This document shows, piece after piece, positions 3,146-61,300 of a stretch of DNA of 64,000 nucleotides (its first letter is position 1; each line of letters starts with the position of its first letter). A program made the position numbers and the translations under genes. The notes below the pieces were generated by a model. The model worked only from the letters and a program-made list of their open reading frames with translations, was not told where the DNA came from and searched no databases. The DNA comes from an uncultured virus (IMG/VR IMGVR_UViG_3300025723_000028) (Duplodnaviria; Heunggongvirae; Uroviricota; Caudoviricetes), in the IMG/VR virus record IMGVR_UViG_3300025723_000028; one strand, given 5' to 3'.

Positions 3146-3362
3146 ATTTTTGCAGTAAGTGTGATAGGCAACGCGAGCCTGTGGCGCACTATAAACATGC
3201 TACTATTAATGAGGGCGGCGTACCGGATGATAAGTTCCTGGCGATAACTGGAATGTGTAAAATGGTATAGTATTAAAGCATATTGGGATCGGCTCTAACG
3301 AGACTCCATAAGATGAGGAACGAAATATGTTTTAATACCGACATTCGTAAGAGTGTCGTAAT

Positions 3363-3439
3363 GTACGTGTGTAGCTGAACGGTTAGGCCACGGATTGCAA
3401 ATCCGTATTATGCAGGTTCGATCCCTGTCACGTACTCCA
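3363..3439 (+). tRNA. tRNA-Cys(GCA)
   Basis: GTACGTG/CACGTAC acceptor, ACGGA-TTGCAAA-TCCGT, T-loop, CCA. Confidence 0.85.
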
Positions 3440-3481
3440 TTTTGCGAACTTACGCTAAATATATATAAAGCGAGGGTTCAA

Positions 3482-4141
3482 ATGTTTTGTCAAAATTGTA
3501 ATATAGAGCACACTGGTATATATGGGTCAGGTAGATTTTGTGGCGTTAAATGTGCGAGAGGGTTTTCTACGAAAGCTAAACGAGAGGAAATTAATAAAAA
3601 AGTTTCCGCTAGCCAAACTGGCAGAAAATTATCTGAAGCGCATAAGAAAAATATAGAATCAGGTAACAATTTTAATAGAGTTGAAAAAGTTACAAAAACT
3701 TGTATTGGATGCTCAACAGAAATAATTTGTCGCATTACATCAAAAAAGAAATTTTGTACTGTTAAATGCTGGGCAACTTACACAGAACAATACAAAGAAC
3801 CTTTTTTATTATATAGAAAAAAATCTAATTTTGATTTTAATATAACAGACTACGAAGATAAATTTGATTTAACGTTGGTAGAGCAGTATGGCTGGTATAG
3901 TCCATCTAACAAAGGAAACAATCTAAATGGAGTTTCTAAAGATCATATGCTAAGTGTCAAAGATGGATTCATATTAGGGGTGGACCCTGAAATTATTAAG
4001 CATCCAGCGAATTGCCAACTCATTCTACATAGACAAAATCAAAGTAAAAGAGAAAAAAGTTCAATAACTTTAGAAGAATTAATGGAAAGAATAGACAACT
4101 GGTTGACAATTAACTCATCCGCTACTATAATACTTGTATAG
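3482..4141 (+). CDS. HNH-type homing endonuclease with Zn-finger and NUMOD3-like segments
   Basis: CxxC motifs, GRKLSEAHKK, SKDH...HPANCQLILHRQN; ATG at 3482 follows TAAATA and an RBS. Confidence 0.75.
   Translation: MFCQNCNIEHTGIYGSGRFCGVKCARGFSTKAKREEINKKVSASQTGRKLSEAHKKNIESGNNFNRVEKVTKTCIGCSTEIICRITSKKKFCTVKCWATYTEQYKEPFLLYRKKSNFDFNITDYEDKFDLTLVEQYGWYSPSNKGNNLNGVSKDHMLSVKDGFILGVDPEIIKHPANCQLILHRQNQSKREKSSITLEELMERIDNWLTINSSATIILV
4103..4131 (+). promoter_or_regulatory. consensus sigma70 promoter upstream of the non-coding array
   Basis: TTGACA-17 nt-TATAAT. Confidence 0.85.
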
Positions 4142-4160
4142 TAAATGTTCTTTAACAAAA

Positions 4161-5898
4161 CGACGTAATATTGAAGCATACCAAGGCGTAAGCCGATATA
4201 GGGATATAGCCGGGCCCCAAGAGCCTCAGGGTTGGCAGGTTCAAGTCCTGCGCAGTGTGTTTCAATATTACGTTGTAGTATGTATAAAGCGTGGGTTCTC
4301 AACGAGTCCCTGTGCAGAGAACTGCTGTCCCGACATTTGTAGCGCCTGATGATAGAGTAACGCCTTGAAACCTTAGGGTAGCGCGGAGTGATCACAGTCG
4401 GGGAATAACTGATCACCAGGGGACTCACTCTTTATACATACTACTGTCCATATTGAAGTACATTACTCTGGGTCGCTCTCAGGTAGGTACATAGGGATTG
4501 ATCACCCGGGTAGGTTCGAATCCTACAGTAGTGTATTTCAATATGGTAATGTGTAGGCTGATACACAATCGTTGAAGTAAGCTCTCAACGAAATGACTGA
4601 GGGGCTAACTATGGGCAAATTTGAACAAACATAGGAGCCGCATACAATTCTAGATATGTATGTGGGTTGTCAAGTCGGAGATCAGCACCGACACCATATT
4701 GAAGTACATTGACAAGCAAGATAGTTGGGCAAACAATTATCTCGCACAGTTGGTATTTGCCATCCAAGGGCCCTATGGACCTTCAGTGTATTTCAATATG
4801 GTAATATCAGTTGTTAGTGGGTCATATGCGGGACTGACACTAAGGGGTACATCGAGGCTCGGAATCTCGGACACTATCAACACAATAGCACAAAGGTTGT
4901 TGCAACAATCTCTCGTGGTCGCAGACTGTACTACGGTCCTTTCCGTTCGATTCGGAGTGTTATTGGATATGCCATATTGAAGTACACTTAACACCTTCAG
5001 GACCCAGTGGTCGCCATGTAGTCGGTTGTGTGCGCACCTAGTGTATTTCAATATGGTTAATAACCATAGTCGGCCCGTGTTCCCACCGTGCGATACCCGA
5101 CTTAAAAAAGCCGATAGCTATATGTGACGAGCAGGCAGTGATCAACGGTGGGGCTATATTGAAGTACATTACTCTCCAGGGTGGGAACCTGAGCGTTAAG
5201 GTGTAGGTAGTAGATTGAAAAATCGAACCTGTATATATCTCGTATTGCTAAACCTCCCAGGTTATACGGACGTAACATCGGTAGTGTATTTCAATATGGT
5301 ATAAACTATATCAAGCGACTGCAATCAATTGATATAGGTTGTGTAGGTGTACTGGCTGGCACACGGAACCGTAGTAGGCAAAGTTGAAACCCTTGCAGGG
5401 GTGAATGAAATGCCGAAGTGGGACTGGGGGTAGGGTTCGAATCCCTAACACATTTGAATTAAGAGCGAAGGGTTCGCTGGTCTTGTGAAGAGGGGTTCGA
5501 CTCCCTGAGCCGTCTGGTTCGATTCCTGGCGGGGCAGGTGCAATAACAAGACACCATATTGAAGCATACTGTACACAAACGCCAATGGTGAGCGACTCGT
5601 CGAGGGACAGGTATAGTGGGTTCGAACCCCACTGTGTATGAAATGACGATTTCAACAGTGTGTTTCAATATGGTACTCGGGTATACGTCAAAACAAAAGT
5701 AGGAAAAAGAATGGGGAATAATGTACTGTTTAAGGACACCCTGGTCGCCACGTCATCCTTGTGGTCGAAGATATTACCTACTACCTGATTGAAAGAGTAA
5801 CCATATTAAAATACATTAACCGGTGTTGGTATGTCGCACACTGATCGCCTGGACTACGAACCTAGGTAAGACAGAGGTACTAGTGTATTTTAATATGG
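4161..5898 (+). repeat. array of stem-bounded non-coding cassettes (units 4161-4275, 4448-4546, 4693-4802, 4972-5056, 5154-5299, 5553-5674, 5801-5898)
   Basis: Recurrent inverted pair CCATATTGAAGTACATT / AGTGTATTTCAATATGG around unique GC-richer inserts. Confidence 0.9.
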
Positions 5899-5974
5899 CC
5901 AATGGGACTGCATGGTGTGGTCGCCGCACTGTCACTGCGGATATCGATGGGATCGTTACCCATATTGGTCGCCA
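5897..5974 (+). tRNA. tRNA-Asp(GTC), atypical T-loop
   Basis: CCGCA-CTGTCAC-TGCGG; GGCCAAT/ATTGGTC G CCA; T-loop ATCGTTA. Confidence 0.75.
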
Positions 5975-5993
5975 AATTATTAATACAAGTTAT

Positions 5994-6063
5994 GCCCCAG
6001 CCTGGGTTGCAAACTGGATTTGAGGCCAGATGTAGACGGGTTCGATTTCCGTTAGGGGCACTA
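5994..6063 (+). pseudogene. degenerate tRNA-like element
   Basis: GCCCC/GGGGC acceptor-like stem and T-arm; irregular D and anticodon arms; ends ACTA. Confidence 0.45.
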
Positions 6064-6071
6064 AGTTTTAA

Positions 6072-6103
6072 GGGTCAGTAGTTCAATTGGCAGAATAGCG
6101 GTT
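6072..6103 (+). pseudogene. 5' half of a tRNA (Trp-like)
   Basis: GGGTCAG TA GTTC AATTGGCA GAAT resembles tRNA-Trp at 9242; stops before the anticodon. Confidence 0.55.
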
Positions 6104-6117
6104 TTGTATAAATAAAG

Positions 6118-6163
6118 TATAAACTACTTAATCTATAAAACTACCAATTTACTAAAACGAAAG
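6118..6163 (+). pseudogene. relic N-terminus of a GIY-YIG (Seg-like) endonuclease
   Basis: Translates as NYLIYKTTNLL, resembling the YxIYKTTNLINGK start of Seg-like enzymes; no ATG. Confidence 0.5.
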
Positions 6164-6171
6164 AAAAAAAT

Positions 6172-6246
6172 GTCTCGATAGTGTAATTGGCAACACTTTG
6201 GTCTCCAAAACCAACATTCTAGGTTCGAGTCCTAGTCGGGACGCCA
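6172..6246 (+). tRNA. tRNA-Trp(CCA)
   Basis: Full cloverleaf, TTGGT-CTCCAAA-ACCAA. Confidence 0.9.
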
Positions 6247-6382
6247 TATATTGCCTCGTAGTAAAGGCGGCGACGATAGCAACGATAATCTAACATTAGT
6301 TTGTCCGAACTGTCATCGTTTAGCACACGAGGGAAAGATTACAGAATTTGTTTCATTGACTACACAAATAGGCGATGAATGA
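6245..6382 (+). pseudogene. relic C-terminus of an HNH endonuclease
   Basis: HILPRSKGGDDSNDNLTLVCPNCHRLAH HNH core without a start codon. Confidence 0.75.
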
Positions 6383-6398
6383 TAGGATGTGAAGATTT

Positions 6399-6485
6399 GG
6401 ATTGGTATACCTCTAAGGACGGGGCCGTGACTGTAAATCACGTGGTTTTATACCTGGCAAGGATCGTTACCTTGACAATCCACCA
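6399..6485 (+). tRNA. tRNA-Tyr(GTA), atypical T-loop
   Basis: CGTGA-CTGTAAA-TCACG, long variable arm, T-loop ATCGTTA, ACCA. Confidence 0.75.
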
Positions 6486-6493
6486 AGTTTTAT

Positions 6494-6569
6494 CTCCGTA
6501 TGGCGTAATCTGGTAGCGTAGCTGGTCTGGAGCCAGGCGGTCCAAGTTCAAATCTTGGTATGGAGACCA
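6494..6569 (+). tRNA. tRNA-Pro(TGG)
   Basis: C1-G72/A73 acceptor; loop TCTGGAG. Confidence 0.75.
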
Positions 6570-6577
6570 AATGTTTT

Positions 6578-6701
6578 GTGTAGATTCTGGAATTGGCAAA
6601 CAGCTGGACGAGCAGTTCAGCCAATGGGTTCGAGTCCCATGGAAGACCGCAAGTCTTTTAGTATGGTACTGTTGGAGGTTCGAATCCTTCTCTACGCACC
6701 A
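6578..6701 (+). ncRNA. extended tRNA-like RNA with two T-arms and no clear anticodon
   Basis: GTGTAGA/TCTACGC ACCA, D-arm, internal ATGGG-TTCGAGT-CCCAT plus terminal T-arm. Confidence 0.6.
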
Positions 6702-6709
6702 AGTTTTTT

Positions 6710-6784
6710 AGCCTTGACGCTGAAATGGTTTCAGCCCGTCACGACATGGCGAGTTAGGTGGTTCGATTCCACACTAGGCCACCA
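6710..6784 (+). tRNA. atypical tRNA, possibly Val(GAC)
   Basis: T-arm and ACCA; CGTC-ACGACAT-GGCG; acceptor mismatches. Confidence 0.45.
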
Positions 6785-6791
6785 GAGCAGA

Positions 6792-6927
6792 GGATAGATC
6801 GCATTATCCAGTATGAGTTGAGCGGGTAGGTACCTAATCCCGACAGCAGGCAATAGTACAGAACTACAATGCGATAGGTGCCAGTATTGTCTGGTATGGG
6901 CGGAGACCTCAAAAACGCTGTCCACCA
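6792..6927 (+). ncRNA. structured RNA with acceptor-like stem ending in ACCA
   Basis: GGATAG/CTGTCC-ACCA closing a GC-richer 136-nt segment between tRNAs. Confidence 0.4.
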
Positions 6928-6933
6928 ATTAAC

Positions 6934-7008
6934 ACAGCTATCGTCTATCGGTTAGGACACCAGGTTTTCATCCTGGCGAGCGGGGTTCGATTCCCCGTAG
7001 CTGTACCA
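6934..7008 (+). tRNA. tRNA-Glu(TTC)
   Basis: Cloverleaf, CCAGG-TTTTCAT-CCTGG. Confidence 0.9.
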
Positions 7009-9336: not shown

Positions 9337-9807
9337 ATGAAGTTCAACATACCACAAATTAAAGAGTTTATAGACAGTCAAGGTCCCAACACTAAAATTT
9401 ATATTGGTGTGGATTCGGAACGAGTTAAAAAAGGTACACAATGGTTTGCTGACTATACAGCGGCTATCGTTGTTCACTTAGATGGAAAACATGGTTGCAA
9501 ACTGTTTGGCGAGGTAACTCGTGAAAGAGATTATGATCGAGTTGACAAACCAAATACACGCTTAATGACTGAAGTATTCAAAGTGTCGGAATTATATTTA
9601 AAATTATCTGAAGTATTAGAAGGACGTGAAGTTGAAGTTCATCTTGATCTTAATCCAGATGATGAGTTCAAAAGTTCTAATGTGGTAGCGCAAGCTATTG
9701 GATATATACGAGGTACTTGTAACGTTGAACCACGTGTTAAGCCTTTCGGGTTTGCTGCATCGTATGCTGCCGACAGATTCAGAAGTTTGAAGGCGGTTAA
9801 CGAGTAA
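9337..9807 (+). CDS. RNase H-like YkuK/DUF458 family protein
   Basis: IYIGVDS...EVHLDLN...AASYAADR. Confidence 0.7.
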   Translation: MKFNIPQIKEFIDSQGPNTKIYIGVDSERVKKGTQWFADYTAAIVVHLDGKHGCKLFGEVTRERDYDRVDKPNTRLMTEVFKVSELYLKLSEVLEGREVEVHLDLNPDDEFKSSNVVAQAIGYIRGTCNVEPRVKPFGFAASYAADRFRSLKAVNE

Positions 9808-10034: not shown

Positions 10035-10488
10035 TAGCGCAAAAGGACGTAAAAGTTATGACAGTACTATGGGTAATACCATAGTACCGTTCTTCAATCG
10101 CAATGTAACACCTTATCCAACAGAAGCAGGTGGTCCAAAGTTTGAGTTAATTCCTGTTACTAAACAAAAAGACATTATGATTAATAATGCTCGATTGTTT
10201 GCACAACAAGAGTATGATCGTATTATGGAATTGGTTTCGGTATTAGAACGACAAGCTGCTGATATTAAACGCAGATTGGATATGACTGATTTAATACATA
10301 GTTGTGTATATGATTTTCAATTGACTATGGGTCAGACCTACTGGGTAATAAAAGATACACGCAAAGATACAGTAATATTATCAGGAATGTCACCCACAGA
10401 TTGGACCAGTGGTATTCCAGTAGATTATGAATACTTAATAAAGGTACGTTACATGGGTGATCACTCATGGATGGAATTAAATGAATAA
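10027..10488 (+). CDS. hypothetical protein (DUF2452-like)
   Basis: PYPTEAGGPKF...QQEYDRIMEL...LSPxDW-like pattern. Confidence 0.55.
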   Translation: MSNSAKGRKSYDSTMGNTIVPFFNRNVTPYPTEAGGPKFELIPVTKQKDIMINNARLFAQQEYDRIMELVSVLERQAADIKRRLDMTDLIHSCVYDFQLTMGQTYWVIKDTRKDTVILSGMSPTDWTSGIPVDYEYLIKVRYMGDHSWMELNE

Positions 10489-10489
10489 T

Positions 10490-10520
10490 GCCCCGGTGGT
10501 GTAATGGTAGCCACGTTAAT
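10490..10520 (+). pseudogene. 5' half of disrupted tRNA-Leu
   Basis: GCCCCGG TGGTGTAATGGTAGCCACG; acceptor partner CTGGGGC ACCA at 11122-11132. Confidence 0.7.
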
Positions 10521-10565
10521 TTGTTTTTCAACACGTTTAGCATAAATAAATGCGGAGGCAAAAAT

Positions 10566-11024
10566 ATGTTATTAATTGAAAATTATATTACACAATCTAA
10601 AGAACAAAGGCAACGGCACATAGATTTAACTGATCCATGTATAGAACGAGGTGGTCCACAAAAAGGTGGATTATCAAGTTATTGTAAAGGACTAATGGCA
10701 CATTTATTAGATACTACTATTCCAAGTGGTCATAAAATACATGTGTGCCATGCCTGCAACAATGAAAAATGTAGTAACCCAAAGCATTTGTATTGGGGAA
10801 CTGCACAAGAGAATAGATTAGATCAAGGTCATAATACTTCTCCGTGGGACAGAATGGTTGAGAAATATGGTTACGAAGAAGCCTGCAGGATGAACGCTAA
10901 AGGCAAGAAAGGTAACACCAACGGTTCTGGAAACAAGGATAAGCCTAAGACTGAAGATCAAAAGAAAAAAATCTCCGAGAGCATTAAGTTGCACTGGGAG
11001 AAAAGAAAAGGGCTCGTGGCGTAA
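10566..11024 (+). CDS. HNH homing endonuclease with NUMOD3-like tail
   Basis: VCHACNNEKCSNPKHLYWGTAQEN; KPKTEDQKKKISES; stop codon inside tRNA-Leu. Confidence 0.85.
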   Translation: MLLIENYITQSKEQRQRHIDLTDPCIERGGPQKGGLSSYCKGLMAHLLDTTIPSGHKIHVCHACNNEKCSNPKHLYWGTAQENRLDQGHNTSPWDRMVEKYGYEEACRMNAKGKKGNTNGSGNKDKPKTEDQKKKISESIKLHWEKRKGLVA

Positions 11025-19463: not shown

Positions 19464-19538
19464 GCGTTTGAAGCTAAACGGACAAGCAAGAGCCTCTAAA
19501 ACTCCGAATAGTGGGTTCAACTCCCACCAAGCGCACCA
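19464..19538 (+). tRNA. tRNA with CTA anticodon (amber suppressor candidate, Arg-like body)
   Basis: GCGTTTG/CAAGCGC ACCA; AGAGC-CTCTAAA-ACTCC; T-arm GTGGG-TTCAACT-CCCAC. Confidence 0.7.
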
Positions 19539-22399: not shown

Positions 22400-22598
22400 G
22401 ATGATCGTGCCAACACTGAATCCACGAAACCCGTTCGTGATGCTGGCACATAAAAGAAGTGCGGGAAGTCACGCTAAGCCACACAAGGCTCAGCGCAAGT
22501 TAGATAAGCAGAGGGGGTATAGCTCAATAGCAGAGCATCCGGCTTTTAACCGGTCGACCACGGAGCGTTACCGTGTGCCCCTACCATTATTATATTAA
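22386..22598 (+). CDS. small basic protein whose frame runs through tRNA-Lys
   Basis: AAGGAG RBS; RNPFVMLAHKRSAGSH. Confidence 0.5.
   Translation: MMKSKMIVPTLNPRNPFVMLAHKRSAGSHAKPHKAQRKLDKQRGYSSIAEHPAFNRSTTERYRVPLPLLY
22513..22586 (+). tRNA. tRNA-Lys(TTT), atypical D- and T-loops
   Basis: CCGG-CTTTTAA-CCGG; T-loop AGCGTTA; D-loop lacks GG. Confidence 0.75.
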
Positions 22599-22683
22599 AA
22601 CACACTAACCGGTGTTGGTATGTCGCACACTAGGACGGTCTTAAACACGGTCACTAGCAGTATAGTGTGTTTTAATATAATAA
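22587..22683 (+). repeat. outlying copy of the stem-bounded cassette
   Basis: TTATTATATTAAAACACACTA/TAGTGTGTTTTAATATAATAA; insert starts AACCGGTGTTGGTATGTCGCACACT as in unit 5801-5898. Confidence 0.85.
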
Positions 22684-22684
22684 T

Positions 22685-22759
22685 CCGGCTATAATTCAAC
22701 GGATAGAATAGAGGATTTCTACTCCTCCGATGTGGGTTCGATTCCTACTGGCCGGACCA
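22685..22759 (+). tRNA. tRNA-Arg(TCT)
   Basis: GAGGA-TTTCTAC-TCCTC. Confidence 0.8.
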
Positions 22760-24638: not shown

Positions 24639-25835
24639 ATGTACCCAATAGACAACGTAAAAATGTGGTCCGGCGATATGGAAGTCGAACAGGCTGCTAT
24701 GGATCAACTGCGTAATATCAGTGCTTTGCCAATTTTAGCAGGTCATGTGGCAGTTATGCCCGATGTCCATATGGGCAAAGGTGCCACCGTGGGATCAGTT
24801 ATCCCAACCCGCAGTGCAATTATTCCTGCCGCAGTTGGTGTGGATATTGGGTGTGGAATGTGTGCGGCTATGACTAATCTAACCGCATCTGATTTGCCAG
24901 ATAGCCTAGTCAGCTTGCGTAATCAAATTGAACGTGACGTACCTGTGGGGTTTAACGAACACAAGCAGGGTATTCCCAGTGTAACAGGTCCATATGCTGA
25001 TGTATTGCGTAAGAACTTACGCAATACCATGGATCGTTTTGAACATTTAGCCCTAGTGCCACATTTGAACCGTGCTGACTTTAACAAGATTGGACGGCAA
25101 GTTGGTACTCTTGGTGGCGGAAATCACTTTATCGAGCTGTGTTTAGATAGCGAAGATCGAGTGTGGATCATGTTACATAGCGGCAGTCGTGGTATTGGTA
25201 ATCAAATTGGTTCTGTTGCTATCGAATTAGCTAAGGAGCAAGCATTGAAGCGAGATTACAGTCTTGCTGATCGAGACTTGGCTTGGCTTGACGAAGGAAC
25301 CGCAGAGTTTGATGCTTACATTGAAGCTATGTTATGGGCGCAAGATTATGCACGTTTTAACCGTGATACTATGATGAATTTAGTTACCTCACTGATGCTA
25401 CGTCGATTTCCACAAATGAAAATTGTAGGAGAAGTTGTTAATTGTCATCATAACTTTACCTCCATCGAAGAACATTTCGGTGAAAAAATGTGGGTCACAC
25501 GTAAAGGTGCAGTGTCAGCGCAAGCAGGACAAATGGGAATTATTCCTGGATCAATGGGTGCTAAATCATTCATTGTACAAGGAAAAGGCAATGCCGATTC
25601 TTACTGTTCGTGCTCACATGGTGCTGGGCGTAAACACAGCCGTAATGGTGCAAAACGTCTATTTTCATTAGATGATCTAGCATCGCAGACTGCTGGTGTT
25701 GAGTGCCGCAAAGACTCAGGTGTACTGGACGAAATTCCAGGTGCTTATAAGAACATAGACGACGTTATGAGTGCTCAAAGAGACCTTGTTGAGATCGTTC
25801 ATACGCTAAAACAAGTATTATGTGTCAAAGGTTAA
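24639..25835 (+). CDS. rtcB: RNA 2',3'-cyclic phosphate/5'-OH ligase RtcB
   Basis: VMPDVHMGKG, VGVDIGCG, GTLGGGNHFIE, HSGSRG, SHGAGR, DEIPGAYK. Confidence 0.95.
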   Translation: MYPIDNVKMWSGDMEVEQAAMDQLRNISALPILAGHVAVMPDVHMGKGATVGSVIPTRSAIIPAAVGVDIGCGMCAAMTNLTASDLPDSLVSLRNQIERDVPVGFNEHKQGIPSVTGPYADVLRKNLRNTMDRFEHLALVPHLNRADFNKIGRQVGTLGGGNHFIELCLDSEDRVWIMLHSGSRGIGNQIGSVAIELAKEQALKRDYSLADRDLAWLDEGTAEFDAYIEAMLWAQDYARFNRDTMMNLVTSLMLRRFPQMKIVGEVVNCHHNFTSIEEHFGEKMWVTRKGAVSAQAGQMGIIPGSMGAKSFIVQGKGNADSYCSCSHGAGRKHSRNGAKRLFSLDDLASQTAGVECRKDSGVLDEIPGAYKNIDDVMSAQRDLVEIVHTLKQVLCVKG

Positions 25836-49332: not shown

Positions 49333-52300
49333 TTAATTAACTCCCCTTAAAAAGAGCGCCGATGAAGTTGTAGTATCTTGCAATGGGGTGCCATTCGATG
49401 CTGTTTGTGGGCTCGTACCTTGAGCATACCATGTTACGCCACGACGTACTAAAATAGTTACTTCTTCTCCGACAGCTGGGGCAGTTATAAATGTCACTGA
49501 AACTGGTGTTTCATTAGTTATAGTGTACCCAGTGGTTTGCAATATACCACCGAGATATACTTCTACTTGTCTATTTAAAGATTGCCAATAAGTTGTATTA
49601 GTAATAGCAGTATTATTAGGAACCGTAATAATCGCACGGTAGTAAAATCCATTATCAACTACTACTGTGCCTTCTGTATAACTATTTGCTGCTACCCATG
49701 TGATTGCATCGGTAAATGCTAATGAAATATCTACTGCTTCAAATACTGTAGTTACTCCATTTCCTATCATTCTATCACTAACGATATAGTTTTGAGATGC
49801 AGCAGGCAGTAAATTGCTTCTACCCATGTCATAAACAGTCGACCCTATTGTATGCGATGCCGCTGCGGTGCCAGCTGTGCCACGTAATAAACTACTGACC
49901 GTATTAGCTACCATATCAATTTCACGATACATAATGCGTTCGCCATTTATAGTTATAATTCCCCATGTATTGGTAGAAAAATTAGGAATTGTTAATGCAC
50001 TAGCATTAGCTACATGTATAATATCATCAGTTTGTGCTAAATTTTGAGTCAATAATGTAGTAGAGTCTATGGTCATACGATAAGTTGCTTGAACCCCGCG
50101 CATATCCTGGAATATTCTAAATTCCATAGCTTCAGGTACCACTGAACAAGTAACATTCGTCACTACCACAACATCAGTTGTCTGTATTGTGCCACTATTT
50201 AAACTCAATACATTTCCATTAATTGTATAATCAATATTTGGAGATAATACTTTTCCATTTTTAGAAACCCATGGGCGTGAAATATCTGTATAAGATTGAT
50301 ATAATACAAAATTATTGATGTAAATTGTTTCTCCTACGGTAGCATCAAATTCACCTGGTAATGATGATGCAGCGCCAGGCGGATTATCGAAGTCTGTTGT
50401 ATCAAACGCTTCATAAACTGATATTCCTTCACTATCTGGCCCGACAAAAATTTGCGTTGACAGTCTTTGTTCTCGTGTATCATTAAATGATGTAATCGAA
50501 ATAATTTGACCAACTTGCGGAACGAGTCCTTTGCCTGTTATAAAGGTTAAAGTATGTGCTATAGGATCAATTATATACTGCGCTGTCGCATTTACTGCAA
50601 TATAAATTTGTGCATTATCTGCAGGTGTGTTAGTCAGTATTACAAATACAGTATCAATATTTGGATCAAACGGTACAGTTGAATAATAATCTGCTTTCAT
50701 ATTTCCACTAAATCCAGTATATATCGATATGTCATATAATGCAGGATCTAATAATATACCGTCAACATAAACACTTACCATAGATTTAGTTATTGCTGCT
50801 GAATTGATTCCTATTCTCGATGGTAATGGGAATCCAGTATTTCCATTTTGTACTATGTAGCTGGCCCCAGCAGAACCTTGTGCAACAACCCCGCCCACTG
50901 TTACAATTGCAACCACTGGATTAGTATATTCTAAACTAAATGCTGGATCCAGATCAAATACAGTTTGTCCTGGTGTTGCTACACTAAAACTCTGAGTCAC
51001 AGGTAAACTCCAACTGTAATTTGTAGTTACATTTTGAATTGTAGTAGGTTGAATTACTACTAAACTTATAAAATCAGTTGAATTATATACATTAGTAAAT
51101 GTTACTTGTGTCGAGGACAATGAATAAGGAGCGTAGGAATAATTTGAATTAGCCAAATATACGCCATTAACAAAAATAACAAATTCTTGTATTGCTGGTG
51201 TAATACCATCATTTTGGTAGTATGCTACAGGAACTATCAATGAATTTCCTACTTGACTGCCATTATAAGTATTTTTATATACTTGATTGCCGCCACCCAA
51301 TTCATACACATAAATTGCAATTTGATCACCTTGTGCAACCAAAATAGATGTATTTAAAATTGTAACTGTTTGGACAGTCCAATCTATTGTATAATCAACT
51401 CCTAGAGTTAAATCATACCCTTGAGTTACATCAGTAACTTCCACGATAAATGGATATGGTAATGCACCTGCAAAACTAATAGTTGCATTGCTGCTTTCAT
51501 AAATGAATTGTATTACTGCTTGCGGAAAGCTGTGTCCTAACCCTTGCCAATCAGCCCCAGGAGTCGTATAAACTCGCATGTCTAATGTATCAAATTCAAT
51601 TCCTGGCACTAATTCTTCTGGTGCATGACTTTCGTATACATCTACATACTTACCACCATCGATATTGATATCAGTAGGGCGTGTTCCAAGGTACGGATCT
51701 AAATAACTGCTTGCAAAAATTGTGTCCAATACCCCTATGTCATATGTTGGTAATCCATTTGCATCATAAGATATGTTATCAAAAGGATTAATATCAAAAT
51801 TATCTCGGGCATATCCAGTGTCTTGGCTGAAATTTAATCCAGAAACTTGTACTCCAGGATAGTCAACACCATCTATAAGCAATGGTAAAGATAATCCAGG
51901 AGAATTTACGGTGCTGACATAATAGCCCATAGTACGGTTAACACCGCTTAATTCACTGGCTGAAACCATTGTCCATTGCGACGGGTCAAATACTGAATTA
52001 GATTCCGTATTATTAGAGCTCCAAACTATATTGTCGTATCGTACCTGAGTCCCAGTTTCATAAGTTATATTTGATTCCCAGTCAACGATTGTTGATTCAT
52101 ATTCATAGCGATCATATTTTAATGTAAGATTAAATGTACGAGATAATGTATGTCCAGACGGATTGCCCATTATTACACTGGCCTGAGCTGGTTGACCAAC
52201 AAACAATAATGATGCTGTACCGTTAATTTGATCGTTGTGTCCAATTGGAGCAACATTTCCTAATATTCCTGCTTCGGCAACTTCAAATATATTGCCGTTC

Positions 52301-55300
52301 GGAGCAATAATATAACTATTCGAAACTACTGCCAACCCTGCACTCCATTCAATAGTAACTCCAGGTAATCCACCACCTGTGATATTTATAAATGCATCTG
52401 TAATATAGCCACTACCTGGATTAGTTATTGTAATCGAAATAATATTTCCAGTCGTATTAATTATACTGGTTCCAGTAGCAGGGTATCCAGCATACATTAA
52501 CGTAGCACTACCATCAATCGCTGAACCAGACATGAATGTAGGAGGAGTAGACCCTGATGTACCCGGAACTGTAATGGTATATAAGTTATTTGCATAATAT
52601 ACTTGTTGTCCAATACTATAAGCGGTGTTTGGATACCACATCGTACCGAATGTTATAATAGGAGCATTTCTATATCCTGTTCCTGCATTAGTAATATTGA
52701 CACCTTGCACGTTCAACAGATAATTATTAAACCATTGACTATATAAACTTGGATATTGCCAAATTTGTGCATTAGGCGCAGTATTGCTTACTAAAGAATT
52801 ATGAGGGGTTATAGCTTGATTGTACGGAGTCAATATAGGGCTTACAAATTGTGGACTTTTCAGCAATGAATTCCAATATGCAGGTAAGTCAAAATCAGTT
52901 AAATCTCCTAAGAAATTATCCTCTCCGCTATAAGTTAAATTAAACTGTCGCACCTGAACATGATAAGGTTTAACTTCTTGGAAATAATTTACTACAAAAT
53001 CTTGATTATCTGAAAGATAAGTTTGATAAGGTAATAATGAACGAATCTTATGATTGACATCGACATAACTTGTTTTAATTAACCAAGATGGATCAGTAAA
53101 CTCACTGTATACAAAATTAAACATTAATATTAAACTACTATTACGTTCAATTAGTAAATCTTCAATATAGATTTCCTCATTCAACGCACGTATAATATAA
53201 CGGGTTTCAATCTGTGCAGTTTCATCAAAATATTGTGAATCATAAGTTTGTGCATCAAACCCAAAATCAGCAACTGCGTAATTCCATAATTCTTCTTTAA
53301 AGGCTATAGTGCCATCTTCTAACCCGACACGTTGCCAGTCACTGACAGGATTAACACCTGTACGTAAATAAATTTCCCATTTGCCCGAACCATTAGAAAT
53401 AACACGCACAGACGACCCTACTGGTGCTGTTGTATAACTTAATGTTGCCAATTGCCCATAATTTTGAACCGCAGCAACTGGTGCAATAGTCGAATTATAT
53501 CCTGGTAAATACCAATTGACATAATACCAATATAATGGAGTATCATAACTTTGTACTTGTGTTAACAACAATGTTCGAGTAGCACTAACCGTATAAATTG
53601 TCCATCGGCCGTTTTCGGTACTATCATTTAATACAAGATACTTGTATCCAACTGGAACTACATACAGATCTTGATAGCCTAAAACTTCTAAGTTAGGTAC
53701 TTCAAAATTCCATGCTCCAGATCCAGCAGAAGGAATCGGATCTGCTGCATTCAATAAATTAAAACTACGTGTTTCGGAAATAGGATACTGCAATAAAACT
53801 GAATTTGCTCTACCTAAATAATTTTCTAATGCAGTAAATCTATCTGCAAACATTGACTGTCTGGGACGGAACTGTACACCAAAACGCATACCTGGACTTA
53901 AAGTTGGATCTGGTACTGCATTACCTGCTGTATCAATACCACATAAACTATCTATAAACTTTCGATATAACTGAGTATTAAGGAATGATTTTGCAATGCC
54001 ATCTGTAACTATTTGATATTCTTGATGTACTACAGAATCTGTTAATTTTCTTGAAAAACTAACATTCAATATAGTATTAGTAGCATTTAACAAACGCTGT
54101 GCATTATAAATCGCAATCGTTGATGCATTTAATCCAGCAATGAAAGGTAATCCACTGCTACGAGGATCAAAAATATAGCTGGCAACTCCTGCTGCACTTA
54201 ATGTTTTTCCGGAACCTGAAGCAATTGTTGTAATTCCCTTGACCCAAAAATAATAAATTGTTGTAAAAATATTATTTGATCCCAATGATGTTGCTACACA
54301 ATAACTAGTAGGACTCAATGGTGTGCCTGATCCAGTGTAGTTAGATGGTGGGGTAGTACTTGATATCCATTGGTAAACATCAATACTACTGCCTGGGAAA
54401 GTCGTACCCCAACGACGACTAGCATATACTATGTCATCTTGACTAGGATCGATGAATCTTACTGTATCAGTATCCCACCACATTTCACCGATGTGTTCTG
54501 CGCCCCAGAATTGACCATTATTATGAACTGTACCCTGATTATATTGTGCTGGGTCAACTGATCCAATATAATCAATGTTACTACGAGCAATTCCAAGTAT
54601 TTTACCTTGTAATGGATCAAAGAAGTCGAAGTATGTTTGATACGCACCATTTAACGTATCGTTAACTCCAATAGCTTGTCCACCATTGTAACTAAACACT
54701 CCATCGATCGCATGTACATCTACAACTGGTTGTTGTACACGTATAGGCGCCCATGCAGGAGTATTGTTTGGATTATTAAAAATTACTATATATCCATTAC
54801 CATTAGTAGAAGTATTTGTTCCGCCTGGAGCGCCTACCATTAATCTACCATTTGTATAATTTACTGCGGTGCCAAAGAAATTACCAGATTCAATGACATT
54901 ATTGTAAATTTGTTGCCCAAATGCAAATTGTCCAGGATTTTTGATATTATTTGTACTACTTGGGAAGAAATCATATGTATATGCCACCCCTCCGTTGTTA
55001 ATCGGATTATAAAAAGTGGTACTATTTTCATCAAAGTAAGTTTGATTAGCATCAAAAGTTGTTGGCTCGTAAACGTTTCCATTTGGTGCACCAACAATTA
55101 AATTAACTGCGCTAGAATCAATACTTAGACTTGCACCAAATTGAGCATTGAATGCTGGAGATGGGCTTAAAATTTGCTGAGTAAAGACTAAAGTATCAAA
55201 TCCCAATTGACCAAATACCGATGTTACTGTCCCAGGAAGTACTGTAATTAAATTGTTTGGTGTTCCTGCTTTGGAGTTTTTAATAGATAATGTTAATCTT

Positions 55301-58300
55301 CCAGAAACAACAATTATTTTTACACCAGGTAAAGGTGCAAATACAAAATTAATAGTTTCCGCAGAAGGATCATAGGAGTAATCTATCCCAGCAATTTGCA
55401 ACACATTATTCAAATAGACAACAGTAGTATATGAACTAGCAACCGTATATAAAGATCCAATATAAAAAACTTTAGTTGTACTATCGCCTGTAAATGTTAA
55501 ATCTGGAGTAGTTGATGCTATTACATTCGGTATAGCCATTTCATTGATTGCTTTCGCAAAACCTGCTACTGTATTGTTAGGTTGCGCTGGCACAGTTACT
55601 ATTGAATTATTAATACGCAATGTACCAGAAGGAGTTAGAACAGGATTAGCTATTGTAGATGTGGTAACCCCGTATACCCTCGATTGATTAACTTGGTGAT
55701 CAACTGACCCAGCTAAATCAATATAAGTGCTATCGTATGGTGCACCGATATAAAGACTGCAATTCAATGGACATGAATCAAGTACTAGCCCGTATTCTGC
55801 TGATTTTACTGGTGTGCTACTTGATAATTCTTGAATTTGTGTAATTTGATTAGTACCAATTTCAATTATATCTCCGTAATTAAACGTTATATTAGAAAAT
55901 ATGATATTATTTCCGCTTATACTATATTGTCCTTCGATTGACTGGCTAGTAGTTAATAAAAATGTTTCGTTGACGCTTACTGTCACAGGATTTGTAACAT
56001 TACCAGGTATTGTATATGTTAGTTGAGAAGGATTCGAAACTATATAACGAATTACGCTTCTGTCAAACATATACACTACCCCGGAATTATTTAAATTATC
56101 ACGTGTAGTATTAGGTGCTCCTACGTATATTTGTGCTCCATCCGTTGTTGTTGCAACTGATGATCCGAAATTATCTCCGGATATCGAATCTGTAGACGTA
56201 ATAGTAGTAACATATTGCCAATATGTCGGTGTTGTTACTATAATATCTGCTCCAACTGGCGGAATAGTAATAAATGTCAACTCAGTAGTTTCATTATTAA
56301 ATGTATAATCAAAATAGGGACGTTGTATTACTTTATTTACAGTCACTGCAAAAGTTTCGATAGTGGTTGCATTATACAAATATGTGTTTAATGCAAAGGT
56401 ATTAGTTTGATTTATACCAATACCAGTATACGTATACCCGCTTATTGCACCGCCTACTGCAATTCCAGTAACAGTTATTGTTAAATCATTGGCAGTAGTA
56501 GTTCCTCCTAATCTTGATCCAGAAATAACTAACGTATCATTAATAGCATAAGACTGTCCGCCAGTTATTAGATTTATTACATATTCGCCGCGTACATTTT
56601 GAATTGTAAAAATTGAATTATATCCAGCGCCTGAGGTTGAACTTTGTCTCAGATTGTAATAAGTCGTAGCATCTAATTGTTTACTCAAATTGCGAGTCAA
56701 CGTAAGTGTTTGTCCTGACACTGTTGGGTGAACTAATGTTACAAAATTTTGATCTACAGTATAATCTTTTCCGTAAACTAACTCAATTCCACTTAATGCA
56801 ACTGATAATTGTTCAGGATGCAAGTAATTAATCTGTATTGCGTTTGAATATTCGTAACTAGTTACACTATAGTTTGTAGTATATGTAATAGTTTGATTTA
56901 CTACATCTATTTTTTCATAGGCATAAACTGAATTAGCTGCCGGTGCTCCGATATACATCCATTTTTCGTCTGCACTAATTACTCCCGATGTTCCAAATTT
57001 AATAGGATTAAAATTTTGTGTCGGCGGAACTAATAATTGAGTAATAGTGAAGGAATTTACATCTGAATTTCTATAAATTACTACAGCATAGCCCATGTTT
57101 GATGCACTGGTATTAGCTCCTGCTATAGCCCAATTAGAACTACCAAAGGATACCATATTACCAAAATTACTTGAATCAATAGTTTCCAGTATTAATGTGC
57201 TGTTAAATTGATAGTCAGTAAAATTTCCTCTAATATAAGTCAGTATAGAATTGGCTCCAGGTGCACCTACCATAGCGCCAAAGTTAGATGCTGATTGTGT
57301 TATACTTACACCATATCGATCACTAGGAGTAAATCCCGTGGAAATAACAGAATCGGTAATAAATGGAGTTTGTTTTTGTACAGTTTCCCAATGTCCACTG
57401 CCGTTATTATCTATCCAAGCAATCGAACCCGGTACTAAATTATTAACATAAGGTAAGTTTGAAATGTCACTAGCTTGTGATACTCGAGCACTTTGTAAAT
57501 GAAAGACTAACCCAGTACCTGTTATATTAGTTACATTTGTGTTTACGAAACTAAAGGCGATAATAACGGTAGTTGGAGTTGGTGCTGCTAAAACACGATA
57601 AACCCCGTTAACCCCATTATTAAAATATTTAATAATAATTAAATCATATAATGATAACCCATGTGCCGCGTTAAATTGTACAACACTAGTACCATTGAGA
57701 TTATCAGTTAACCGTATCATTTGCCCTGGCACACTGGCTACACGATATACACCCCAGTCATGCGTGTTGGTTTTAGCAATCCAGATATAAGTGCCAATTC
57801 CAATATTGTTGATATCAGCTTCAATTGCCGCAGGATCTTCAATACTGAATACCGTAACATCAACATCATCTAAACATACATAACCTGCAGACGGTAATGC
57901 ATCTGGCAAACTACCTGATTCATATATAGTAGGAAGAATGTTAATATTATTAATAGAATAACTTTCTTTCCATAAATTGCTCAAATAAACCTGCTGATTA
58001 GCTTGACTTACATCGCCTGGGTTTGTAATTTGTATAGTTGACGGATTGTAAGATAATAGAGCTTCGTTTAATTGAATTTCAAAGTAACTCTTATTAGCAT
58101 TTGCCCCGTACACTCCGGATAATATGCCCCAGTTTTCATAGATATTATAATCGCCGCTTTCTTTGCCGTTAAGTTTTGCTAAGTTGAATATTTCAGCAGC
58201 TTGTAATGTACCTTTGGTACCAATAAATTGTTGATATAACTGAACTTGTGTTACACCATTAAGATTCATGTCTGTCATATATGGACGAGGACGGAATCCA

Positions 58301-61300
58301 ATCAATCCAAATGCAAATAAATCGTTATCACTGGTTAAATTAGCTTGGTATACATCGTATGAGCTTACTAATTGATCTGCTTTATTAGCCAAGTTAGGCA
58401 ATAATCCAGTGTCAATTGCTTGATAATCACTTTTTATCCACTCACTATAATTAAAGGTTTCTTGTGGCTCACTAATAACCAATGCTTGCCAGTAGGTATT
58501 TTTGTATAATACCATATCTCCCTTGGTATATTTTTGATAAGATTGCCATTGCTTTACATTGTTTAAGTTAAGAATAAATCCTTGTGCATTTAATTGCCCA
58601 TCCCATTCAGTTGTCGTAGATGCGATTAAACTTAAACGAACTTGTCTTGCGGCTGTAATTGGATCATATATCAAATCTCTAAATTGTGTAGTATTATCTA
58701 GCACAATCATATCTTCGTAATTTGTGAATTTCAATGTAAGATAATTGATAGTTTGTCCGTTTGTAGATGTAATCGAAAATTGATTACCATCACGATTAAC
58801 TATCATTGAGCTAACATCCAACACAGTACGATTTTGATCCAGTAACATATTTTCCGGAGTTATGCTGGCAATAGTATCTACAATACTGATAGGTTGACTT
58901 GCTTTAATTGTAGTGGCAGCTGGATTTAGATTAATCATTGTACCTGCTTGCCACCCTTGTTCTCCAAAGTATAAAAACTCTTGAGACATCTGTAACCAAT
59001 TTAATGTGTACCCATTGTATGTATTATCAAATATTAATCCTTGAGATGTTAGCCATGCTCCATAACTCATTAAGAAATCGCAGACACTAGATGGACTGGT
59101 AAAAACATATCCATACGGAATTTGTTTTATATTATTTGTATATTGTGATGGAACTTGAACTGTGGTATTACCAGCGGTAATAGTCTGGTATAACCCTACT
59201 GGACTACTTTCTAATATTTCAAAATAAGGTTGTACATTGCTATAACCATAAACACTATATCCTATTCCACCTGAGCCTAAACGTTCTACTTGTACAATAA
59301 CAGAACTATATGTAATTTGATCAAATGGTTGATTTTTATAAAAAATCAAACTATAACTGCTTGGGGGAATTTGTAAACTATTATTCGTAGAACTTGGTCC
59401 GGCTCTTTCAGTAGATATTTGAACATACGCAGAATCACTGAATGAAGCCATACGGTAGCATAGACGCACATCTAAGTTTGCTAATTCGTTAGTCAATGCC
59501 GTAGTACTATTAACTCCTGTTTGTTGATTATAGTCAACAATCCAATTGATATAACTTGCTTTGCTTACACCATTACCATATACTTGTACACCTGAAGCAT
59601 TTAAACGGTAGCGACTATTTAACAAGTATTGACCTAGTGCATTATTGTATCGATATAAATCTCTATCAGCAAATAATGAGAAAAATTGTGCTGGTTTTGT
59701 CAGTGCTAATAATCGCATAATAGCAAATGGATACGAACTACTATTCCACCAAGATGCCTGAACTGGACCACCGTCACCAGATACCCATGATTGTTGGAAC
59801 CCATACGGATCATTACGACCCATTACGCATTCAGACGGAGGCAGAAGATAACCTTCTGAACTAGCAGGAATAATTTTTGATAAACCAGGTCTTATATATT
59901 CAGGAAGAACATATGGACCAACAGGATCTGCAACAATACCAGCTTCTAAATCATCCCAAAGTACTGTATTTCCTGATGTATATGGACCTGGACCATAACG
60001 TGTCGCCCACCATGCAGGTTCTTCAGAAAATCCAACCATTTCCCAAGGTGTAGTATTTGGGGTTTCAGTATCATAAAAATAACGATATATGCCTCTCCAG
60101 TTACCCTGTAAGAATTGTGTTTGGTCGATACGATTAGCGGCTTGGCTATAGTTATAAGTAAACGGATTGTCTGTAATATAATTTTGTTGAGTATAATCTA
60201 CACGATTTTGCCCAACCCATGTTAAGAAATCCTCGCTCATTATTTGATTCACTTCCGAATATGTGTAAGGCGTTTTTCGAAAGAATCCAGGTAATAAAGC
60301 AGTAGTTTGCGCTGGGTAAAAAGTAGGATCTACTTGATCTGATGTCAATGGAATTGGATTATCATCGACTTTAATGTTATCATAAATTCGCTTTTCAAAT
60401 TCAAGTAATACTTGATCTCGAATATCACCAAAAGCAATAGTAGTTGATCCGTCGTGTCCTTGAATTACTACAGTAGGCTCTGAGTACGTATCGTCAATAT
60501 AAATTGACGGAGTAAATTTAGGATATAACCCCATTTTACTAGGTGTATTTGGACACCAGCTGGCCACAGTAGTTGGATATTCGTTAATAGTAACCACATC
60601 GCCAACATGTAGTGGTACTAAAATTGTTAATTTCTGTGCATCAACTGACACAGTATATTGACTATTGCGCAATAATAATATATCATTGACATATACCAAT
60701 AACCCAAGATAATTACTTGACGTAAAGTTATACATTTGACTTGTGTTAAAAGTCGCTGATGTAATTGGATTAACTACCGTTGTCGTCGATGTATAATTTG
60801 TGCCAATCGGAAGCATATCTGACCAATAAAACGAATTTGACTTTGTCAAACTTTTTGTTATATTACTGATTCCCAGATCAAGTACTTGCGATACCGTTTC
60901 ATTTCCAGTAAGATTTAATTGTGTTACTGCGGTTAGCAATTTATTTTTATACTTGATGTATTCTCTGCTGTTATAATCTAAAGCAGCAAATAAATCGTAA
61001 TTAATGTTACGTAGGAAAAATCCAGCTAATGTTAATGGCGAAGATTGTTGTAATATTAACTGACCATAAGGAATAATATTTCCCAAATCTCGTGTATTAT
61101 TACGTCCATTTATTGGCCCAGCTAGATTAACTAAATTTTCACAAATAGTAGTATAATGTTGTCGAACTGTACCAAGACTAAATTTTGCACTATTACCATT
61201 AAACGGATTATTTTCTAAATTAATAGGAATTTGATAAAATGCAGTAGCACTCACTTGCTGACTATATGCCAATATTTCAACTATGTCACCAATAACCATA

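Follow-up and report, generated by a model that had tools for sequence, protein, structure and literature searches.

What kind of element fills the non-coding DNA between a consensus promoter and a run of tRNA genes in the uncultured virus IMGVR_UViG_3300025723_000028 (Caudoviricetes), and what does its recurring stem do? We analysed 64,000 nucleotides of this record (the window, by which we mean the whole stretch), for which an earlier note, made from the sequence alone, had described at 4103-5898 an array of variable cassettes, each closed by the same conserved RNA stem. Our analysis indicates that these cassettes belong to a sizeable, so far unnamed RNA hairpin family that large uncultured phages carry in their tRNA arrays, with a predicted stem that takes in the CCA end of the RNA lying just upstream. 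This CCA anchoring, and the widespread occurrence of the element as an inter-tRNA cassette with swappable tops, were both missed by the earlier note. The window is the richest case we found, with seven units in one promoter-driven operon set among CCA-ended RNAs.

The identity of the element rests on the anatomy of its stem. Searching public viral contigs with the 17-base 3′ arm returned at least 132 stretches, and each of the 188 non-identical units used throughout was oriented to the strand that encodes its tRNAs. A tRNA called by ARAGORN has the A of ATATT as its final base in 72 of the 188 units; the positions before this A, -2 and -1, hold C in 165 and 158 units respectively, and position -3 is A or G in 166. 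On the other side, the next tRNA begins directly after AATAT in 23 units, the GG of the arm there supplying G1 and G2 of that tRNA. These tRNA ends, conserved C residues and tRNA starts therefore define a 19-bp stem, N-CCA-UAUUGAAGYACAYU paired with AGUGURUUUCAAUA-UGG-U, which is extended by a further 1-2 bp. On its 5′ side the stem takes its first four bases from the neighbouring upstream RNA, namely that RNA's discriminator and CCA, and on its 3′ side it closes with UGGU, such that it spans from the CCA of one RNA to the 5′ end of the next. Pairing of UGGU with the discriminator and CCA is seen in most units, and its U covaries with the A or G at -3. The sequence of the stem, not its pairing alone, is nearly invariant, and a wobble is conserved at two positions, G-U at 8 and U-G at 13. 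The tRNAs directly upstream are mainly Glu (16), Leu (13), Lys (12) and Gln (10), together 51 of the 74 abutting cases, counted without correction for shared ancestry; these four make up about 22% of all tRNAs called in the loci. Directly downstream of the hairpins we mostly observed tRNAs for Asp, Ala, Ser and Met, likewise uncorrected for shared ancestry.

The pattern of change in the stem bears on whether it is maintained as RNA. In an alignment of 45 units (A2), 96.3% of cells are paired and 10 of the 19 pairs have changed on both sides; none of 500 shuffles was as good, and no slid register comes close to the pairing of the stem. Over the 188 units we counted 370 G-U cells vs 55 A-C cells, with 154 units pairing better on the sense (tRNA) strand, 7 pairing worse and 27 tied. 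DNA inversion, which the earlier note had named as a refuting outcome, loses support: 83 pairs of similar tops share the same orientation and none is inverted. Together, the covariation, the strand-specific G-U excess and the fixed orientation of the tops point to selection acting on a transcript of the tRNA strand, the strand on which we infer that the hairpins are expressed, and speak against both an inversion site in the DNA and a transposon that inserts in either orientation. Tempering this, much of the G-U excess sits at the two conserved wobble positions, 8 and 13, and stem position 5 runs contrary to the strand trend with 27 A-C and 0 G-U cells, an exception that may come partly from the fixed 3′ arm in the search pattern. 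With positions 5, 8 and 13 left out, 91 units pair better in the sense and 16 in the antisense direction, with 81 ties.

The viral stretches that carry the stem arm are nearly always parts of tRNA arrays. Among 176 exact matches to the 3′ arm, 167 have a partner upstream, lying at a distance of 25-220 nt and pairing in at least 16 of the 19 positions; by this definition 124 of the 132 loci hold at least one full unit. ARAGORN called tRNAs in 73 of 80 long loci, mostly in dense arrays, and five complete viral genomes of 162-400 kb carry 1-4 units each, confined to one small region. The 17-mer also turns up in genome contigs of bacteria and archaea, in 85 stretches, of which 77 are solitary copies without a partner arm, about the number expected by chance on a rough estimate. 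The 8 stretches with a full unit all lie in contigs of metagenome-assembled genomes (MAGs), labelled Planktophila, Aquiluna, Crocinitomicaceae, Planctomycetia (LacPavin), Alteromonadales and Methylophagaceae, several of them freshwater groups. These labels suggest that the carrier phages are mostly from fresh water, and because the MAG contigs may be phage DNA binned with bacteria we assign no host.

The earlier note had recognised no named family in the array, and our searches agree. At Rfam 15 gathering scores the window gave only tRNAs, and in the region 3300-7000, searched also at E up to 10, nothing fell on the stems. In 20 related loci the 150 best of 205 Rfam matches comprised only tRNA, permuted tmRNA and group I intron. 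Against the deposited phages of INPHARED, a unit with a tRNA-shaped top matched only the T-arms of tRNA genes, a unit with a short top gave three chance-level matches of 18-23 nt, and with the whole array as query only the open reading frame (ORF) upstream of it was matched (76% over 95 nt), by a 735-kb uncultured phage record present in two copies. Literature searches by stem sequence and keyword, covering listings and the starts of abstracts, returned no published description, and the stem strings matched only unrelated primers. As to the neighbours of the family, a permuted two-piece tmRNA (RF04321; 110 and 66 bits) adjoins the arrays of the two contigs most closely related to the window (L006:4899-5179 (-) and L042:6234-6626 (-)) and was not found in the window. 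Group I introns (RF00028; 71 and 53 bits) occur within related tRNA arrays at L038:1904-2099 (-) and L037:4764-4957 (-).

The tops behave as exchangeable cassettes. The 188 tops, 20-130 nt long, fall into 137 clusters, and the same top family is found after different tRNAs. Junctions whose 45-nt flanks are 95-100% identical can carry different tops (L045 vs L108, L066 vs L071/L095, L091 vs L102, L010 vs L044) or none, with empty counterparts for three junctions (in L057/L068, L121 and L045). In the clearest empty/filled pair, the filled site equals the empty one plus UAUUGAA...AAUAUGGUA inserted directly after CCA, and none of the three filled/empty comparisons revealed a target-site duplication. 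Some top families are nevertheless conserved across contigs with their internal pairing kept. Specifically, a tRNA-shaped family of 8 aligned units, which includes unit 1 of the window, has 32 predicted pairs, 10 of them with compensatory changes; its T-arm abuts the 3′ arm of the stem and the long stem takes the acceptor position, with no standard anticodon loop. A T-loop-like motif is present in 25 of the 188 tops, mostly 3-8 nt from the 3′ arm. In the window ARAGORN called none of the tops a tRNA, and the Rfam tRNA score of the top of unit 6 was 27.1 bits vs a 29-bit cut-off. We also considered that the tops might be guide RNAs and set this idea aside, as the tops of the window have no significant antisense match within the window.

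In the window itself, a covariance model built from 45 units (R1) gave nine matches, all with a higher score on the + strand, which is that of the tRNAs, than on the - strand. All seven units of the earlier note lie within a few bases of where it had placed them. Its count therefore holds for the tandem series at 4165-5899 and falls short for the window, where R1 adds units at 3267-3341 and 22589-22681. Its further claims, that arm mismatches read as G-U pairs on the + strand and that the G-C to A-U change in unit 7 (TTAAAA/TTTTAA) is compensatory, are borne out by the window rows. Each unit folds as a long terminal stem around a variable top, with z-scores of -3.7 to -6.8 and none of 200 shuffles as good. 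Unit 1 (4165-4271; 31.3 bits with R1, z -5.6) is the first after the promoter; it lacks an upstream CCA, has a differing, compensated stem base (GTAAT/ATTAC), carries a tRNA-shaped top and is homologous to L006 and L042. Unit 2 (4447-4547; 59.4 bits, z -5.8) has a T-arm-like hairpin stacked on the stem, and is followed by unit 3 (4693-4802; 58.0 bits, z -6.8), unit 4 (4971-5057; 56.0 bits, z -3.9) and unit 5 (5153-5300; 48.5 bits, z -3.7), the last with the longest top, of about 110 nt. Unit 6 (5553-5674; 54.7 bits) holds a near-tRNA in its top (5571-5640), and unit 7 (5800-5899; 55.6 bits) has the compensated stem. Unit 8 (22589-22681; 51.1 bits) lies between a tRNA at 22513-22583, which is followed by CCA, and tRNA-Arg at 22685-22759, and the first 24 nt of its top are identical to those of unit 7. 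The CCA of the tRNA at 22513-22583 anchors unit 8; this tRNA and another at 19464-19535, both on the + strand, are Rfam matches (51.0 and 46.4 bits, respectively) that ARAGORN did not call. The remaining match, at 3267-3341 upstream of tRNA-Cys, is a degenerate unit that forms 16 of the 19 stem pairs and scores 23.8 bits on the + strand and 16.8 on the - strand. All nine matches are given here on the + strand.

The context of the tandem units is that of a non-coding transcription unit. The sigma-70 promoter proposed upstream of the array is present at 4103-4131 (+) as TTGACA-17-TATAAT, matching all 12 of 12 consensus positions, and the statement that the array has no credible ORF also stands, since the five ORFs inside it (71-129 aa) have no Pfam match. 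The GC content of the array is 0.42-0.49, compared with 0.30-0.33 in the adjoining coding DNA and 0.36 in the window as a whole. These data support an array of promoter-driven RNA hairpins on the + strand, predicted to be non-coding, with a conserved stem and unrelated tops. The stretches between the units, which had been noted as spacers, are themselves structured, GC-rich non-tRNA RNAs (S1-S6; 102-259 nt, GC 0.42-0.52). Each starts on the GGU of the arm before it and all but one of the six end in CCA, with the result that units 2-7 each follow a CCA-ended RNA, save unit 5, which follows CTA. All are on the + strand. S1 (4272-4446) is a non-tRNA RNA with its own 15-bp closing stem and a TGTCCA end; its inverted repeat (I3) is 22 nt long and 91% complementary, and the minimum free energy over 4269-4450 is -59.5 kcal/mol. 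By its fold S2 (4548-4692) is likewise structured, starting with GGTAA and ending in ACACCA, as is S6 (5675-5799), which ends in TAACCA. S3 (4803-4970; TGCCA end) has homologues in other phage contigs, with 92.6% identity to L098 over 202 nt and 80% to L021; six loci are nearly invariant over the roughly 100 nt of its 5′ half (alignment A1), and its core pattern occurs in 7 viral contigs. S4 (5058-5152), the sole one without CCA, ends in GGGCTA and is about 74% identical to L042 and L116. S5 (5301-5552), a 250-nt structured RNA with T-loop-like hairpins and an ACACCA end (fold z -2.5), contains repeat families D4/D5 (GGTTCGAATCC-like) and shows partial similarity to L069; its Rfam matches are limited to weak ones to the tmRNA T-loop.

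Downstream, the array had been described as running straight into tRNA-Asp. ARAGORN does call such a gene at 5897-5974 (+), which is absent from the Rfam tRNA matches, and we refer to it as an atypical tRNA-Asp(GTC)-like RNA; it is 88-92% identical in L116 and L038, its 5′ end starts on the GG of the 3′ arm of unit 7 and its 3′ end is GCCA. L057/L068 share about 87% identity with the promoter region (4100-4144), which also falls inside longer matches to L006 and L042, and an alternation of hairpins with non-tRNA CCA-ended RNAs is also found in L042, L006 and L116. Because homologues exist elsewhere for S3, S4, the promoter together with unit 1, the tRNA-Asp-like RNA and a portion of S5, the window appears to hold, at the head of the tRNA array, a non-coding RNA operon of a conserved type.

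Other features lie around this operon. An ORF at 3395-4141 (+), just upstream of the promoter, matches phrog_23051 (E 3.6e-36) and parts tRNA-Cys from the array; in L006 only a short distance separates tRNA-Cys from the first hairpin. Visual inspection suggests a tRNA-like stretch that includes a T-arm at approximately 5992-6065 and an apparent 5′ tRNA fragment at about 6072-6110, neither called by ARAGORN or Rfam, and after tRNA-Trp a short stretch (6247-6385) resembles a C-terminal piece of an HNH endonuclease. The stretches at 5990-6110 and 6247-6385 are possibly decayed genes in the array. In or beside the tRNA and hairpin arrays of the window lies a gene for an RNaseH_like protein (PF04308, phrog_11311; 9337-9807, +); it is found within a few kb of hairpins at G002:16954-17388, G003:43497-43892 and G004:45352-45783, and ORF similarity clustering places it in 16 of the 80 related loci. 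With 3 of the 5 complete genomes carrying it, it is not universal. A single ORF of 4759 aa occupies 49333-63612 (-).

How might such hairpins act? We give an even chance to the reading that the stems of CCA-anchored inter-tRNA hairpins mark cut sites, of RNase III type, in a long precursor. Transcription would run from the consensus promoter through the seven hairpins and six S RNAs and then on into the tRNA genes, and in the resulting precursor each stem would clamp the 3′ end of the upstream RNA within about two turns of perfect double-stranded RNA (dsRNA). This duplex would be the cutting mark for a double-strand-specific endoribonuclease; for comparison, an RNase III stalk consists of about 20 bp or more of dsRNA formed by the flanks of a stable RNA, and the stem here has 19 plus 1-2 bp with 96% pairing. 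3′ exonucleases would then trim the upstream RNA back to its CCA, RNase P would free the downstream 5′ end, and the tops would be released as small stable hairpin RNAs, some of them tRNA-shaped. Host RNase III would be the most likely cutter, because the complete carrier genomes that we checked encode none. None of these five genomes yielded RNase III (PF14622), RtcB, a CCA-adding enzyme or a type A RNase P RNA, and the nuclease would therefore be that of the host or an unrecognised phage protein. A phage-encoded RNase III is thus not the general answer.

Several observations weigh against this reading. RNase III needs little sequence, and a near-invariant 19-bp stem with conserved wobbles exceeds its need, which hints at a sequence-specific partner, with the caveat that the scan, whose fixed pattern guaranteed a conserved 3′ arm in one or more units of each viral locus, inflates arm conservation. 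Within these arrays the majority of tRNA junctions lack a hairpin, and orthologous sites can be empty; the element is therefore not needed for tRNA processing. In the tandem array, moreover, pairing of a 3′ arm with the 5′ arm that follows is equally feasible and would enclose the S RNAs; what fixes the register is only the compensation seen in the stems of units 1, 7 and 8, together with solitary units in other phages. An optional hairpin and an excess of conservation keep alive the readings in which the stem is a handle for a protein, the boundary of a DNA cassette or a clamp on the upstream 3′ end.

If the helix were a sequence-specific protein handle, the tops would be the functional part, serving as tRNA mimics, as decoys against tRNA-targeting defences or as aptamer-like modules, and processing would be merely how they get released. 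We regard this as unlikely, with a chance still large enough to be taken seriously. It would account for a near-invariant stem carrying tops of 137 clusters, for the conserved wobbles (G-U at 8, U-G at 13) and for the turnover of tops between close relatives, and it fits the top families that keep their pairing across contigs (in the tRNA-shaped one, the 10 compensated pairs of 32) and the T-loop-like motif shared by 25 of 188 tops. However, no candidate protein was found, the nearby RNaseH_like (PF04308) being encoded in only 3 of the 5 complete carriers, the tops of the window lack a significant antisense match there, and many tops are only 20-40 nt long with no common motif. We hold as rather doubtful the bolder idea that the family is a modular RNA display behind tRNA CCA ends, reshuffled against tRNA-targeting defences, or an RNA-level mobile unit that targets CCA ends. 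The exchange of tops can also be read at the level of DNA, with a selfish or recombinational cassette (MITE-like, or resembling attC or the PeSL of T4) landing after tRNA genes and the RNA hairpin as a by-product. Presence, absence and replacement at orthologous junctions, the recurrence of one top after different tRNAs, insertion exactly after CCA with the old spacer kept at one site (L045 vs L111), and the HNH endonuclease genes that recur in the arrays (9 of 80 loci; 10488-11024 in the window) all fit such a cassette. We nevertheless judge it improbable: the three filled/empty comparisons show no target-site duplication, tops are never inverted (0 vs 83 pairs in the same orientation), the strand-specific G-U excess speaks for selection on the transcript, interiors are not conserved as they are among MITE copies, and no transposase or integrase family occurs among the 42 ORFs scanned for protein families, out of 72 window ORFs of at least 70 aa.

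The pairing of UGGU with the discriminator and CCA in most units would also suit a 3′-end clamp or timer, in which pairing of the NCCA silences or shields the upstream tRNA for as long as the hairpin stays in place and thereby tunes tRNA availability; the threats could be exonucleases, premature RNase P action or aminoacylation, or nucleases that cut tRNA tails. The skew of upstream tRNAs towards Glu, Leu, Lys and Gln (51 of 74 vs about 22% overall) is in keeping with this, except that it is uncorrected for shared junction ancestry; most upstream partners in the window are not tRNAs, however, and no regulated nuclease is known, which leaves this reading quite improbable in our estimation. We consider it very improbable that the locus makes RtcB-dependent circular RNAs or is a CRISPR-like array or a DNA inversion switch. 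The window does encode RtcB (24639-25835), the units are repeated and each top lies between inverted arms. The earlier suggestion that RtcB might circularise the units is weakened by the absence of this enzyme from all five complete carriers, and an inversion switch has against it the lack of any inverted pair of tops. The earlier judgement that this is not CRISPR holds, the arms being inverted and not direct, the parts between the units (about 100-260 nt) being structured RNA, and no Cas family occurring among the 42 scanned ORFs.

The preferred reading of the stems as cutting marks would, if true, reveal a new way in which phages organise the maturation of long tRNA precursors with host enzymes. 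If instead the stem is a protein handle and the tops its cargo, the family would add modular small RNAs of a new class to those known from phages. Annotation usually reduces the tRNA arrays of phages to a simple list of tRNAs; they also hold conserved RNA modules tied to tRNA 3′ ends, a large family unannotated in the sources that we checked. With seven units interleaved with CCA-ended RNAs in one operon, the window is a good template for experiments.

Comparison with known systems places the element nearest to RNAs of stable-RNA operons. Integron attC sites and T4 PeSL cassettes share with it conserved ends, a variable centre, arrays and modular shuffling between relatives, and differ in that the cargo here is RNA and not ORFs, the G-U pairing is strand-specific and the tops have a fixed orientation. 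An integron attC array was rejected, as no integrase was among the 42 of 72 ORFs scanned, tRNAs and other RNAs lie between the sites and the ORFs there have no Pfam match, and a MITE or terminal-inverted-repeat transposon was rejected on the missing duplications (3 comparisons), the 0 inverted vs 83 same-orientation pairs and the 137 interior clusters in 188 units. We also rejected a bacterial Y RNA (YrlA-like), with no Y RNA family match and no TROVE protein among the 42 scanned ORFs; the stem of Y RNAs leaves from the anticodon side, unlike the long stem of the tRNA-shaped tops, which stands at the acceptor position. The UGGN bulge of the T-box and the GGU loop of RNase P L15 pair with tRNA NCCA, much as UGGU here pairs with the discriminator and CCA, its U covarying with A/G at -3. 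Unlike in those RNAs, the pairing occurs in cis, on the same transcript, as part of a 19-bp helix. In murine gammaherpesvirus 68 a tRNA-like RNA is followed by pre-miRNA hairpins that are freed by tRNase Z, and bacterial tRNA operons yield small RNAs derived from their spacers; in both, as here, hairpins ride on tRNA transcripts, with release there by the tRNA processing machinery. The present hairpins differ from those of the herpesvirus in belonging to a bacterial virus with no RNA-interference context, in a base that pairs with the CCA of the tRNA and in the use of one stem sequence throughout.

HDV-like theta ribozymes, likewise small structured RNAs, also lie directly beside tRNA genes in uncultured phages and have been proposed to act in tRNA end formation (PMC10879173). 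The element differs from them in having a conserved perfect helix with a variable top and no ribozyme core, and neither the region 3300-7000 nor the 150 best of 205 matches in the 20 related loci included an HDV-like or other Rfam ribozyme family. A close parallel is offered by RNase III stalks, known from the stems around 16S and 23S in rRNA operons, from the hairpins of the T7 early transcript and from the 'species 1' RNA of the T4 tRNA cluster. As in these, the flanks of stable RNA form a long double-stranded stem in a polycistronic precursor, so that the mature 3′ end of one RNA is held next to the 5′ end of its successor. In contrast to them, the stem sequence is conserved across many phages and includes the upstream CCA, the top is an exchangeable cassette that is optional at a given junction, and cleavage is a proposal here. 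We therefore regard the element as akin to the structured spacer and processing RNAs of stable-RNA operons, with a real chance that its nature is more distinct.

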